From a virus: 64,000 bases of DNA. Under the pieces are notes generated by a model. It did no database searches and was not told the DNA's origin. It was given only the letters and a program-made list of their open reading frames with translations. A program made the position numbers and the translations under genes. This document shows positions 34,911 through 55,933 of this stretch, piece by piece. Location of the stretch: the IMG/VR virus record IMGVR_UViG_3300045988_094081, positions 38,033 to 102,032 of that record; one strand, given 5' to 3'. Position 1 is the first letter of the stretch. Every line of letters starts with the position of its first letter.

Positions 34911-35167
34911 TAAAACCGTTTCTTGTAACAAGAGTCCACTACCTTTACCTTTTCTTCTTTGTTCTTACCATAATTAAATTCATACGCATCTTCGAATGAA
35001 TAAAAAACAGCATAACACGACATGCCAAACATATCGTATTTTATCCTGTTTTTCCATTTCCCAAAAATGTTTTGATATTGGCACCAATATTCTACTTCCC
35101 CATTAGTTAATTTCCTTTCAACTATTCTAAGAGGAATATGAAACAAGTTTCTAAGCATTAACTTCAT
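34910..35167 (-). CDS. Hypothetical protein (85 aa)
   Basis: ORF; it overlaps the upstream gene by 17 nt. Confidence 0.4.
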   Translation of the reverse strand: MKLMLRNLFHIPLRIVERKLTNGEVEYWCQYQNIFGKWKNRIKYDMFGMSCYAVFYSFEDAYEFNYGKNKEEKVKVVDSCYKKRF

Positions 35168-35639
35168 GACCTTCCCTATCTGTGAAAACTAAACCAATAC
35201 CTTCTACAATATATCCTACTACAGGAGCTTTGTCAAATTCCTCCTTCGTAGCCCAAGTAGCATTATCAGGCATAAGATCCTTGAATGCGTCCGAAACATC
35301 ACCTTGACACCAGCAGTTATTTGATACAACAATGCCTTTCCCTTCGATATTGATATACATCTTTCTTCCACCACATCCAAGGCTGTTCCATCCGCTCGGT
35401 ACGTTTTCCACCATAGGCTTAAGCACCCAGCTTACACCGTCTATCCTAACCCATCCAGGATCGTCTTTGTGCTTGTCGTACAAGTTTTGCCAAAAAGAAC
35501 ATTCGTAGCACCATCCCCTGTCTTCCATAACAGTTCTTATCTCACACCTTTCAAATCCATCTGCATCCATCGTGTGCGGAGAATGAGGCTGGTGAGGGGT
35601 GCCACATTTTGGACATACGAGTTTTAAATTATTTTCCAT
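35151..35639 (-). CDS. Zn-ribbon protein, paralog A (162 aa; CPKCG...CYECSFW...IDGVSW...GGRKM...FKDLMPDNATW)
   Basis: Clear paralogy with the ORF at 55529..55933; shared motifs are listed in the findings. Confidence 0.6.
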   Translation of the reverse strand: MENNLKLVCPKCGTPHQPHSPHTMDADGFERCEIRTVMEDRGWCYECSFWQNLYDKHKDDPGWVRIDGVSWVLKPMVENVPSGWNSLGCGGRKMYINIEGKGIVVSNNCWCQGDVSDAFKDLMPDNATWATKEEFDKAPVVGYIVEGIGLVFTDREGHEVNA

Positions 35640-35740
35640 ATTATTTCACTTTTACGATCTTAACAGAATCTCCGATATTGTATTCCCCTTGGTATCCACT
35701 GAATCAATAAAAGACTCTTTATTTTTTTTTCTGAAAAGAT

Positions 35741-36331
35741 TTAGGCATTTAACTCTGATTTATAAAACTTCATTGTTGTTTCTTTGGAGATATAAACTTC
35801 GCATCTATCAGCTGGGCCATAACCTACACGCGCTTGTATCCAAGGCAACTCTCTATGTATTGCTGTTTCAAGCTGAAACTGATTCCATTCTGAAAGATTT
35901 TCCAAAACAGTACTCACTAAATCTTTCTGGTCTGTTGTTAATTTGGCAAACTCAGCGTCAACATCTATATCACCGGGAGCATAACTATAGGACAATTCTG
36001 AGTATAAAATTGATTTGTCTTTTAAACTGTCGTACACTTTACGGCTAACCGGCCCATGAACCCACGCTTGAAATTTATCAGAAACCAATTCTGTACCAAA
36101 GTAAGCAAGATGGTATGCGTCACAATAAAACAACAATTTTTGCAATTTTAAGTGAGACATAGAGCCATAATGCTTAACAATATATTCACATAAGACTAAT
36201 GAGTCTATCTTTTGAAGTTTTCGGCTCGTTTCCATTTTTCTATTTTTTTGATGACAAAAATACCCTTTTGTTTTTCTAAAACAAAGAAAATCCTTTATTT
36301 GTTTGTTAAACGTGTTTACAAACACTTTCAA
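35741..36331 (-). CDS. Panacea-domain (DUF4065, PanA/SocA-like) antitoxin-type protein. The likely real start is the ATG at 36235 (164 aa), since the ORF-track start at 36331 is TTG.
   Basis: The sequence LKLQKLLFYCDAYHLAYFGTELVSDKFQAWVHGPVSRKVYDSLK matches the Panacea core (KLQKLLYy...AW..GPV...vY). A minus-strand TATTTTTG -7 box (plus strand 36255-36262) lies 19 nt upstream of the ATG at 36235. Confidence 0.75.
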   Translation of the reverse strand: MKVFVNTFNKQIKDFLCFRKTKGYFCHQKNRKMETSRKLQKIDSLVLCEYIVKHYGSMSHLKLQKLLFYCDAYHLAYFGTELVSDKFQAWVHGPVSRKVYDSLKDKSILYSELSYSYAPGDIDVDAEFAKLTTDQKDLVSTVLENLSEWNQFQLETAIHRELPWIQARVGYGPADRCEVYISKETTMKFYKSELNA

Positions 36332-36465
36332 TAATAATCGGTATATATCACACGTTCACCATTTAAAGGAGATAGATCATATATAACCCATCCGTCATTA
36401 ACCTGATTATCATCATGCGAACATGATGATAACACAAGTGCCATCAATAAAACAAAATACCTCAT
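36328..36465 (-). CDS. Tiny lipoprotein (45 aa, MRYFVLLMALVLSSCSHDDNQVNDGWVIYDLSPLNGERVIYTDYY)
   Basis: Found by manual translation and not in the ORF track. It has a signal peptide with lipobox LSSC, and the +2 to +5 residues (SHDD) resemble the Bacteroidota lipoprotein export signal. Confidence 0.35.
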   Translation of the reverse strand: MRYFVLLMALVLSSCSHDDNQVNDGWVIYDLSPLNGERVIYTDYY

Positions 36466-36664: not shown

Positions 36665-37377
36665 GATCGTTCCTCCTTGTTTTTAGATTCTGCCTCTTCG
36701 AGTATGCTGATCACCTTGTCAACAATATCCGAATCAGACATTTTCTCAATAAAAACATCCATTGCCTTAGTTATGTCATTGGCTTCTTTTTCTTCAAGAG
36801 CTATTTCTCCACCGGTAATAGCATCAGATAATGATGTAGATAAGTGTCTTATCTTATCAATGCTCATAAACGTAAATGGATTACCACCCAAGCCTCCACC
36901 CATTTCTTTCATGATCTGGTATCCACCTGAGATAAATCTGCCTGATGTCGTGGCCAAGGAGGATACGATTAGGGACAGTACCGCCGCTTCCGTCCGCTCC
37001 TCGGACACACCCCTCGACCACACGGCTGCCTTTATAGCGCCGGCCAGGTCGTCTATGTATGGCATGAGACAGTCTTCCATAACTTGTGTTATATCAGCTA
37101 TAACCTCACTACGCTCTTTATTTATGTAGTAGATAGAAGCATTGTATTTCCTTATCTCCTTATCCATATCATTCAAGAATCGTTTGACATTATGTCTGTA
37201 CATAGGACCGCCCTTAACCACTTCTTTCAGCTTAAGAATGTAATTATAAGCCTGGTCGTTTACGAACAACGTCATAGTCTCAACCGTTGAATGAAGCGTG
37301 TTAAGACTGTTAAGAATCTTATCGAAATTGTTTATCAAATAAGCCTTCCTGGCTTTTGCTGCGTAGTTAATCATCAC
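36661..37377 (-). CDS. Hypothetical helical protein (238 aa)
   Basis: ORF on the consensus strand. Confidence 0.55.
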   Translation of the reverse strand: MMINYAAKARKAYLINNFDKILNSLNTLHSTVETMTLFVNDQAYNYILKLKEVVKGGPMYRHNVKRFLNDMDKEIRKYNASIYYINKERSEVIADITQVMEDCLMPYIDDLAGAIKAAVWSRGVSEERTEAAVLSLIVSSLATTSGRFISGGYQIMKEMGGGLGGNPFTFMSIDKIRHLSTSLSDAITGGEIALEEKEANDITKAMDVFIEKMSDSDIVDKVISILEEAESKNKEERS

Positions 37378-37897
37378 ATTCGAATTTTAGATTTTCAAGT
37401 TCATTCAATTGTTTCTTAATTGACTCGATCAGGTGCGTTCTCCGTTCCTCTGCATGTTTTAAAGCTTCTTCTTTGCTCTCAAAAGCATCCCTTCCTATTT
37501 CATAAGGAGTGATCCTATCAGGAATGTCGGCTAACAAAAGACCACCATAATCTTCTATTTTAGCTTTTACTTTTCTTATTACACCGTCTCTCATGCACGC
37601 ATCTGTAATCCATATAAACCTGTCACATTCTTCTAATTCCCTTTCGTACAATTCATACCATTCCGGTTTAGGAAATCTTAATGTAAATCTAATCTCGGTA
37701 TCTTTTTCTAAGACATTAATATCATACGCCTCCGGCCACAGTTCTTTTATGCTGTCTTCATCTTCAGCATACGCCACCAATACAAATGAATTACTGGATT
37801 CTGCACTACACCAATATGGATGTTTTATAGGCCATTTGACTGGACGGTAATCATTATCACAGTCATCCTTTCTAATGTAAAATCTTGCTCTAATCAT
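37367..37897 (-). CDS. Hypothetical protein (176 aa)
   Basis: ORF. Confidence 0.55.
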   Translation of the reverse strand: MIRARFYIRKDDCDNDYRPVKWPIKHPYWCSAESSNSFVLVAYAEDEDSIKELWPEAYDINVLEKDTEIRFTLRFPKPEWYELYERELEECDRFIWITDACMRDGVIRKVKAKIEDYGGLLLADIPDRITPYEIGRDAFESKEEALKHAEERRTHLIESIKKQLNELENLKFECDD

Positions 37898-37898
37898 G

Positions 37899-38207
37899 TT
37901 ATTCTACTTTTTTGATTTCGCTCAAATCGTCTTCATACACCAAATAAGATCCTCTTCCAGGTCTTCCTTCTTTATTAGCTTTCTGGATTGTAAATATAAC
38001 TGTTCCAGTATTCGTGATTTGCACGTTCTTAAAGAAACCAACAAGAGGCTCTTTCGAACGTTTGTAAAGAACACTCACTTTATCTCCCTTCTTTAACCCA
38101 TAAACAGAATCGAAATATTCCTTTTTAATTCTTTCAATATTACTTCTATGTTTGTTCATTGCATCAAGCTCGTCGTCTAACAGTTGATTCATTTGTTCTT
38201 TTGTCAT
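37899..38207 (-). CDS. Hypothetical protein (102 aa)
   Basis: ORF. Confidence 0.5.
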   Translation of the reverse strand: MTKEQMNQLLDDELDAMNKHRSNIERIKKEYFDSVYGLKKGDKVSVLYKRSKEPLVGFFKNVQITNTGTVIFTIQKANKEGRPGRGSYLVYEDDLSEIKKVE

Positions 38208-38947
38208 TTCTTTTCCTCCTTATTTAATGGTATTAATCCTTTTCCGTGTTTATCATACCACAACATAGTTATCACATTCCATGCGACCGCAGCTAAATGG
38301 TGTACGTTCGTCTCTTTATCCATTCTCTCTCCTTTCAGGTACGCCATCATGTGTCGAAACGTCGCCGCACGGTACCGTTCAAAGCCGTCGTCAAGATCCT
38401 GCCAAGTATTAGGCCCATATTTCTTGGCTCCGGCATGATAGACTTTTACAATGTCTTCAATCTCTTCCATCGGAAGCAAATCCCATCGTAGTTTATCGTC
38501 AATGATGTCATTCTTCACCGATTCCCCTTCTTTTTTATTATTGTCTTTTTTTGAACTAACAGGTTCTAACAAATCCAAGGGTATGCTAAACTGTTTCCCT
38601 TCGTAGTATATGACAGCCATAACATCTACATTGTAGACCTCTTTTGCCAATTCGACCATAGCTCCCCCAGGAACAATATCATCTTTAAAAGAATAATCTT
38701 TTTTAACAAAAAGCAATTCTCCTTCTTTGAAAAGGACATCATCATTCTTTAGTATATAATCAACTGGTATATCGATCTCCATACGACCTTCATACGACAG
38801 CGTGGCCTCCTTATCTCCTTTTTTGATATCTTTTTCACACACAACCTTAAGCCCTTTTTTGGCTACTAACGTTTTATAAGCATAAACATCTTTGTTAATA
38901 ACCACATTTGTCCCCTTCGGGATAATAATATTGTCCATCTTTTTCAT
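38204..38947 (-). CDS. Protein with a C-terminal all-alpha NTP pyrophosphohydrolase-like (dATP/dGTP PPHyd / MazG-like) region. This is tentative.
   Basis: The C-terminal WDLLPMEEIEDIVKVYHAGAKKYGPNTWQD...HLAAVAWNVITMLWY resembles the phage dATP/dGTP pyrophosphohydrolase domain family, recalled from memory. Confidence 0.4.
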   Translation of the reverse strand: MKKMDNIIIPKGTNVVINKDVYAYKTLVAKKGLKVVCEKDIKKGDKEATLSYEGRMEIDIPVDYILKNDDVLFKEGELLFVKKDYSFKDDIVPGGAMVELAKEVYNVDVMAVIYYEGKQFSIPLDLLEPVSSKKDNNKKEGESVKNDIIDDKLRWDLLPMEEIEDIVKVYHAGAKKYGPNTWQDLDDGFERYRAATFRHMMAYLKGERMDKETNVHHLAAVAWNVITMLWYDKHGKGLIPLNKEEKK

Positions 38948-55528: not shown

Positions 55529-55933
55529 TCATTTTACCCATTTGGCATTATCAGGTATTAAATCCTTAAATTCTTCTGGGATTTTCCCTTGATGCCACCA
55601 ATCATTGGAAATGATTTTTCTCCCATCATTTGAAATAGCCTCCATCATTCTTCCTCCCATACCCATGAATCTTCGTGTTTTGTTGTTTGTATTGGGAACA
55701 AACGGATTAGCTATCCATGATTCTCCATCTATAATCAACCAATTGGGATTATTCTTATTCTCTTCATATAGTCTGATCCAAAACGCACAAGAATAGCAAA
55801 CTCCATCTCGTTCCATAATAGACCGTATAGGACATTTGCAAAAATGTTCGGGATTCATGCTATGTATATTATTTTGCCCCGACCCATCTTCGCAGCCGCA
55901 TTTGGGACATATTTTCTTCTTTTCGCTTTCCAT
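55529..55933 (-). CDS. Zn-ribbon protein, paralog B (134 aa) of the ORF at 35151..35639
   Basis: Shared motifs: CPKCG, ME(R/D)(D/R)G.CY.C.FW, IDG.SW, GGR.M, FKDL.PDNA.W. Confidence 0.6.
   Translation of the reverse strand: MESEKKKICPKCGCEDGSGQNNIHSMNPEHFCKCPIRSIMERDGVCYSCAFWIRLYEENKNNPNWLIIDGESWIANPFVPNTNNKTRRFMGMGGRMMEAISNDGRKIISNDWWHQGKIPEEFKDLIPDNAKWVK

Follow-up and report, generated by a model that had tools for sequence, protein, structure and literature searches.

Why should a phage carry a gene related to bacterial antitoxins, apparently with a promoter of its own and with no toxin beside it? This question is raised by a Panacea-domain gene in a 64,000-nucleotide (nt) stretch of viral DNA, positions 38,033 to 102,032 of IMG/VR record IMGVR_UViG_3300045988_094081 (hereafter the window). 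Comparison with bacterial operons and with related phages indicates that the gene derives from a Bacteroidales PanA-PanT type II toxin-antitoxin (TA) module, of which it represents the antitoxin half; this half was apparently captured with its promoter and without its toxin by illegitimate recombination. The same comparisons indicate that the recipient is a lytic-looking gut phage of approximately 150 kb related to csAssE-Sib, and that the landing site is a dispensable lipoprotein gene. As to function, we lean towards an orphan antitoxin that would serve in counter-defence against PanAT-type abortive infection or exclusion. The gene itself is as follows:

35741-36235, minus strand: panA-like gene, putative orphan antitoxin homolog, encoding a stand-alone Panacea/DUF4065 protein of 164 amino acids (aa) from an ATG start

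Membership of the Panacea family was judged by a score above the curated Pfam gathering cutoff across most of the domain. The predicted protein matched PF13274 (SocA_Panacea) at E=1.3e-20 with 74.9 bits (cutoff 25.7), over profile positions 1-112 of 113. The Panacea/DUF4065 core described in the first-pass annotation was thus confirmed by the kind of profile search it had put forward as a check, and a further match was obtained to PHROG 1281 (E=2.8e-30), a family annotated as of unknown function. A longer version of 196 aa from a TTG start (TTG at 36331) is unsupported because the bacterial homologs align from the ATG. An AlphaFold2 model based on 38 homologs consisted of a single globular domain (predicted local distance difference test score, pLDDT, 91.9). 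This model had no significant PDB neighbour by Foldseek (best E=0.18, to a chain of a DarTG complex), so the domain call rests on the Pfam match; a sequence search of the PDB likewise yielded no solved Panacea structure matching the protein. More than 650 Bacteroidales PanA proteins of approximately 162-170 aa were 58-78% identical to the phage protein, and almost all of its homologs came from Bacteroidales. Furthermore, the phage protein has kept 61 of the 62 positions that are conserved at 90% or more in this subfamily.

In bacteria, genes of this subfamily do not stand alone. A scan of one genome per species found a partner of approximately 146 aa directly downstream of PanA in all 22 loci (PanA identity of at least 56%), with a spacing that ranged from a 4-nt overlap to a 57-nt gap; at L170 the partner was only a fragment, 184 nt downstream. 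Every bacterial context inspected had the PanA homolog followed by an open reading frame (ORF) of approximately 146-150 aa, often with an IS1595 transposase nearby. On viral and prophage contigs a PanA homolog lay directly upstream of the partner in 39 of 44 cases. The remaining five partners, which were the most divergent, had no PanA at E<=1e-3, and one of the five was located at a contig end. More than 1279 members of the partner family were counted, every one annotated as hypothetical, and a single allele, P0122 (WP_117818059 cluster), was present on at least 1000 Phocaeicola contigs. Invariant His, Arg and Lys residues of the partner correspond to R107, H109, H119, K132 and H134 of P0122. 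The PanA-partner module as a whole is abundant in Phocaeicola, Bacteroides and Prevotella.

The partner family had no Pfam match and no PDB sequence match, and by sequence profile it fell outside RelE/ParE. An AlphaFold2 model of the partner (pLDDT 88.8) retrieved YoeB, RelE and YafQ by Foldseek with probabilities up to 1.0, and the partner is therefore predicted to have a RelE/YoeB fold, which would place it by structure in the RelE/ParE superfamily. This RelE-fold partner, confined to bacterial versions of the module, had been missed in the first-pass annotation, which looked for a toxin in the two phage neighbours of the gene; both proved to be the wrong candidates, as described below. The partner family corresponds to cluster T1 of Kurata et al. 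2022, because the pairs in Dataset S1 of that study include the genomes of our loci L216 and L226 (Brevibacillus gelatini DSM 100115 and Dyadobacter soli DSM 25329; PMC8832971). T1 was described there as a putative toxin cluster in antitoxin-then-toxin order, and the supporting information predicts 'mRNase' for the members tested (PMC8832971). A PADLOC search with P0122 returned only a weak match to NsnC (E=0.004, residues 25-135 against profile positions 176-279 of 284), below a useful threshold. This match was the sole signal from a defence database for the partner family, and a PADLOC search with the Panacea protein returned no match.

The phage gene lacks this partner. No partner homolog was detected in the window of 64 kb (tblastn, best E=0.02), in the two Panacea-bearing IMG/VR contigs (102 kb and 131 kb, both partial) or in GenBank phages (csAssE-Sib among them), the one exception being BI-TP1, a temperate phage of Bacteroides. 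The conserved two-gene locus with an adjacent toxin, present at 22 of 22 bacterial loci, is therefore missing from the window, and an antitoxin homolog without a cognate toxin is what was found there and on both contigs. The earlier remark that the gene had no obvious cognate toxin was thereby borne out and could be sharpened, as the toxin to be expected is now specified. A separate arrangement was observed on IMGVR_UViG_3300045988_147180 (51.7 kb; L028, L044/L253), which carries a partner-less PanA plus a complete PanA-partner pair approximately 10 kb away; the toxin of that pair does not differ from P0122, the common Phocaeicola allele.

The source of the gene can be traced to an operon of the bacterial type. 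Window positions 36310-35740 matched operon L011 (PanA 77% identical) at the nucleotide level, beginning 75 nt before the ATG and extending as far as the stop codon. The homology ended at the panA stop codon, exactly where the toxin gene of the operon would continue. The matching region upstream of the gene contains a candidate promoter:

36255-36285, minus strand: putative Bacteroidetes-type promoter, brought in with panA; TTTG (36285-36282), a 19-nt spacer and TATTTTTG (36262-36255)

The TAnnTTTG-type consensus is that of Bacteroidetes promoters, as established in Bacteroides. The TTTG element, the 19-nt spacer and TATTTTTG, which ends 20 nt upstream of the panA ATG, fit this consensus and make a promoter dedicated to panA plausible. 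The TAnnTTTG columns were invariant in all five sequences of the alignment made with bacterial panAT upstream regions. A scan for sigma-70 sites was uninformative (7 sites against 5.9 expected), sigma-70 being the wrong promoter type for Bacteroidetes. The suggestion in the first-pass annotation that the gene has its own promoter is accordingly kept as plausible, on the strength of the consensus match.

How the gene entered the phage was established by comparison with its relatives. The window phage belongs to a human-gut group whose sole GenBank member is csAssE-Sib (OR575929.1, 151 kb), a phage on which no literature was found. Collinear blastn blocks shared with csAssE-Sib, 89-95% identical in nucleotide sequence on either flank, ended at window position 35704 and restarted at 36343. 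In csAssE-Sib there is no Panacea gene, and the site is occupied by a lipoprotein ORF of 82 aa that overlaps the start of a Zn-ribbon ORF. In the window, approximately 50 nt from the middle of this lipoprotein gene have been replaced, leaving the following arrangement:

35705-36342, minus strand: inserted cassette of 638 bp, delimited by blastn against csAssE-Sib, consisting of the putative promoter, panA and 44 nt that match neither donor nor phage
36328-36465, minus strand: truncated 5' half of the lipoprotein gene, now an ORF of 45 aa whose last five codons and stop come from the cassette, by alignment with csAssE-Sib
35641-35697, minus strand: orphaned 3' remnant of the lipoprotein gene, recognised by its translation GYQGEYNIGDSVKIVKVK followed by a stop, with no ORF that has a start codon

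The 3' remnant corresponds to the C-terminus GYQGEYNIGDSIKIIKVKQYGK of the 82-aa lipoprotein of csAssE-Sib. The 44-nt stretch of similarity to neither donor nor phage lies between the panA stop and this remnant (window 35698-35740).

To place the event in a wider sample, relatives were taken as the best 80 of 197 IMG/VR contigs matched through the Zn-ribbon protein. The 82-aa lipoprotein gene was intact in 68 of these 80 and the Panacea gene was present in none. In approximately ten of the 80 a TnpB/IS605-OrfB gene (PF01385 plus PF07282, Cas12f1-like TNB) was located in or beside the lipoprotein gene. These counts indicate that the lipoprotein site is dispensable and a recurrent landing pad. 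The lipoprotein gene is the older element and the Panacea cassette is an insertion in the lineage of the window; the polarity of the change is clear. The TnpB-type genes (410 or 383 aa) were intact in L096 (2678-3910), L107, L109, L110, L120 and L136 and decayed in L124 and L150, with a further copy in L132 (2713-3864); the homologous site in the window spans about 35640-36465. The cassette itself lacks the marks of a transposon or insertion sequence: a transposase ORF is absent, the only repeats at its ends are chance matches of 10-19 nt, and approximately 50 nt of the target were replaced. Its base composition did not depart from that of its surroundings.

The insertion also accounts for the small ORF next to panA. 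The first-pass annotation was correct that a 45-aa ORF, with a putative signal peptide and lipobox, lies immediately upstream of the Panacea gene (36328-36465, minus strand). Its N-terminus MRYFVLLMALVLSSC matches the L-[AS]-[GAS]-C lipobox by eye (LSSC), and its matches to known lipoprotein N-termini were sub-threshold (VirB7, E=0.0018; PLCC, E=0.0096). The further suggestion, that this ORF is a PanT-like membrane toxin or exclusion factor, did not survive, as the ORF is what truncation has left of the front of an 82-aa gene, and this gene is intact in the 68 Panacea-free relatives. A general caution for annotation follows, in that a small neighbouring ORF can be a by-product of an insertion and not a partner.

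The insertion has been retained. The exact Panacea protein was found in 380 assembly blocks, for the most part on contigs between 20 and 200 kb in length, and the 45-aa ORF, which serves as a junction-specific marker, was found in 513. A search for the junction in Joint Genome Institute (JGI) metagenomes found one contig only. The Panacea gene was intact (164 aa) and in the same context in all 20 contigs sampled. For the analysis of selection, contigs (L242-L251) were chosen through the 45-aa junction ORF, so that the sample was unbiased with respect to Panacea. Synonymous diversity (pS) in the gene was 0.013 and nonsynonymous diversity (pN) 0.002, giving a pN/pS of 0.16 from seven segregating sites, a weak signal in the direction of purifying selection; pS in the flanking genes was 0.03-0.12. 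The low value relative to the flanks indicates that the cassette is younger than the diversity of the backbone, or has spread across it, and suggests either a recent single insertion carried over diverged backbones by recombination or a sweep. In human guts the same phage circulates both with and without Panacea, and these variants constitute an isogenic natural contrast.

A second, unrelated phage lineage also carries the gene alone. This lineage was represented by 20 contigs of 50-110 kb, which have only the Panacea gene in common with the window. Its partner-less PanA, of 157-161 aa and of the same subfamily, occupied a fixed site and was intact in all copies, with flanking genes that include those for a DUF5675 protein and a KilAC antirepressor. 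The median ratio of nonsynonymous to synonymous divergence (dN/dS) was 0.24 at dS up to 0.32, and the second-lineage PanA is under purifying selection. The occurrence of partner-less PanA in two unrelated phage lineages reads as convergence. We propose more tentatively that each gut lineage independently acquired the antitoxin gene alone from the most widespread Panacea module, that of PanA with a T1 toxin of RelE fold, and has kept it.

The mechanism that we consider rather likely is as follows. Cells of the presumed host, their prophages or islands associated with insertion sequences (IS) would carry a PanA-PanT pair whose toxin, of RelE/YoeB fold, probably cleaves mRNA in a translation-dependent manner. 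On infection this toxin would be set free, either as the antitoxin is turned over following host shut-off or in response to a phage trigger, and the infection would be aborted. PanA made by the phage would bind the freed toxin directly, in the manner of stand-alone Panacea antitoxins, and translation would go on. Plausible targets are common: allele P0122 alone illustrates the frequency of the module in Phocaeicola, and the module is also present in the inducible Bacteroides prophage BI-TP1. Several published observations accord with such a role. Stand-alone Panacea proteins neutralise toxins directly (PMC10440598), PanAs form complexes with their toxins (PMC8832971), and an orphan antitoxin of a phage is proven counter-defence against DarTG1 (PMC11825919). 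The first-pass annotation had listed an anti-defence use of an orphan phage antitoxin among its options; the orphan status and the absence of the toxin held up, and this option is the one that the present evidence favours, with neutralisation of a host toxin by the phage protein presumed.

Several points weigh against counter-defence. Kurata et al. saw no toxicity in E. coli for the T1 members that they tested (from E. coli MOD1 and Salmonella phage Emek), and PanAs are narrowly specific for their cognate toxins (PMC8832971). The MOD1 and Emek members are distant ones, not detected by tblastn with partner P0123. The closest bacterial PanA sampled is only 78% identical to the phage protein. PADLOC has no model for either protein, and the defence role of the module is therefore an assumption. 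The partner was scanned for directly in only 64 kb of a phage genome of approximately 150 kb, and with only seven segregating sites the selection test within the window's lineage is weak.

The phage gene was also compared with known systems. With the PanA proteins of PanAT modules paired with T1 (PMC8832971) it shares the subfamily (58-78% identity), the stand-alone architecture and the upstream promoter region; it differs from them in having no downstream toxin and in its location, which is within a phage lipoprotein gene that has been disrupted. The T1 partners are themselves only putative toxins. With T4 AdfN, a DarG1-like NADAR protein (Johannesman et al. 2025, PMC11825919), a DarG2-like protein of a chimallivirus (PMC13309987) and T4 Dmd, which acts against RnlA/LsoA, it shares the condition of a phage antidote without a toxin, apparently co-opted from bacterial TA systems and acquired independently by unrelated phages. 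AdfN and DarG are, in contrast, enzymes that reverse the modification made by the toxin (type IV logic), whereas the phage PanA is a homolog of binding-type (type II) antitoxins with a traceable donor operon. Dmd differs in that it is not homologous to native antitoxins. The closest phage-borne counterpart is gp23-gp24 of Bacteroides phage BI-TP1, whose PanA is 66.5% identical and is likewise a moron-like accessory gene inserted in a phage. BI-TP1 has, however, kept the toxin gene (67% identical to P0123) and thus a full module, presumably for defence or addiction; in the window the antitoxin is on its own.

The domain family was known before, as were the predicted pairing of PanA with T1 and the concept of orphan antitoxins in phages. 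New are a binding-type antitoxin whose donor operon and promoter can be traced, the anatomy of its insertion, the convergent second lineage and the defence role that these would imply; no literature tying DUF4065/Panacea to phage anti-defence was found. PanA-T1, one of the commonest pairings of Panacea, abounds in Phocaeicola and Bacteroides, and it has had no demonstrated function. Natural evidence of this sort, here the retention of the antidote alone by two phage lineages, is what first revealed a role in phage defence for other TA systems. If the two lineages did capture and keep the antidote independently, the PanA-T1 module would be an abortive-infection defence of dominant human-gut Bacteroidales, theft of a binding-type antitoxin together with its promoter would be a general route to phage counter-defence, and orphan antitoxins in viromes could reveal which TA families are phage defences. 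Phage PanA and the Bacteroidales RelE-fold partner form a directly testable pair, in a clinically relevant gut ecosystem for which few pairs of defence and counter-defence are known.

The alternative that fares best holds that Panacea acts in the phage without any RelE-fold partner, as a sensor or regulator, as a SocA-like protease adaptor or as an antitoxin to an unrelated phage or host toxin; in one variant, a toxin encoded elsewhere on the phage would make Panacea part of a superinfection-exclusion pair. Such a role is not implausible in a family where about half of the DUF4065 proteins lie outside TA-like loci and where Panacea often swaps partners (PMC8832971), where Ernits et al. propose a sensory Panacea (PMC10440598), and where, in the present case, the partner search covered directly only the 64 kb of the window. 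We nevertheless consider it unlikely, as the subfamily is a tight one that is strictly coupled to a single partner family in cells, the conserved positions of that subfamily are kept in the phage protein, no neighbouring phage gene co-varies with Panacea, and the backbone phage is without any homolog of the partner. The adaptor version draws on SocA of Caulobacter, a type VI antitoxin and ClpXP adaptor that shares the Panacea domain and whose NCBIfam equivalog model (NF047745) gave a weak, sub-threshold match to the N-terminal region of the phage protein. Only residues 24-75 aligned, however, the score of 53.4 bits widely missed the 190-bit cutoff, and a SocB-like partner is missing. Neither ClpXP nor Lon is needed by other PanAs (PMC8832971).

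It is more improbable that the cassette is a functionless panAT fragment, hitch-hiking in a dispensable gene after illegitimate recombination, even though the setting would suit one. The landing gene is dispensable and a hot spot for junk or mobile DNA, as the TnpB insertions in relatives attest; the cassette is young and of low diversity, so that its intactness alone tells little; and the distant T1 toxins showed no toxicity in E. coli. Against decay and chance stand the 20 intact copies in 20 contigs and the 513 assembly blocks with the junction marker, the promoter and all but one of the conserved residues, which have been kept, and a break in homology that falls exactly at the panA stop codon and removes only the toxin. 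In addition, the partner-less copy of the independent lineage has been kept with a dN/dS of about 0.24 over dS up to 0.32.

The remaining explanation, in which Panacea neutralises the 45-aa lipoprotein ORF or the Zn-ribbon ORF as its cognate toxin or exclusion factor, can be dismissed as very improbable: adjacency, a shared strand and the fact that some validated PanTs are small membrane peptides (PMC8832971) speak for it, but one candidate is a truncated gene and the other a widespread one unrelated to the true partner family, and a toxin that is older than its antitoxin and thrives without it is not cognate. The second of these candidates is a backbone gene:

35151-35639, minus strand: Zn-ribbon ORF of 162 aa, a backbone gene outside the module, present in at least 197 related viral contigs

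The first-pass annotation was right that this ORF has a paralog, which was located at window 55529-55933 (43% identity, E=2e-29), and mistaken in naming it as a candidate partner. In addition to its presence in at least 197 relatives, with Panacea in none of the 80 retrieved, the ORF is affected by a 137-nt deletion (window 35410-35545) or other disruption in the Panacea-bearing L015, L016 and L235, and it is therefore also dispensable. By tblastn it had weak similarity to the C-terminus of the partner (E 0.4-1.5), and a comparison of profiles with the partner family by hhalign gave a probability of 3.6%. On these grounds it was rejected as a toxin.

Further upstream of the putative promoter lies a short inverted repeat:

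36312-36325, no strand assigned: palindrome GTGTTTACAAACAC, 14 nt, upstream of the promoter, from reading of the sequence

The palindrome is conserved in L018, a bacterial or prophage operon of 78% identity, and is possibly an operator or a remnant of the donor locus.

The vicinity of the cassette holds two other features. A gene for a C5 DNA methyltransferase is absent from the window at the junction 37897-37899, between the ORFs at 37367-37897 and 37899-38207, and is present at the same site in csAssE-Sib and in the Panacea-bearing L232 and L235-L240 (L001, 12115-13242). It is thus a second accessory gene of variable presence at most 2 kb from the Panacea cassette. Beyond it, window 38204-38947 (minus strand) encodes a protein of 247 aa whose C-terminal part is a PF18909 dATP/dGTP diphosphohydrolase domain (E=7.5e-26) and whose N-terminal half has no annotation; the protein hints at manipulation of the nucleotide pool or at DNA modification.

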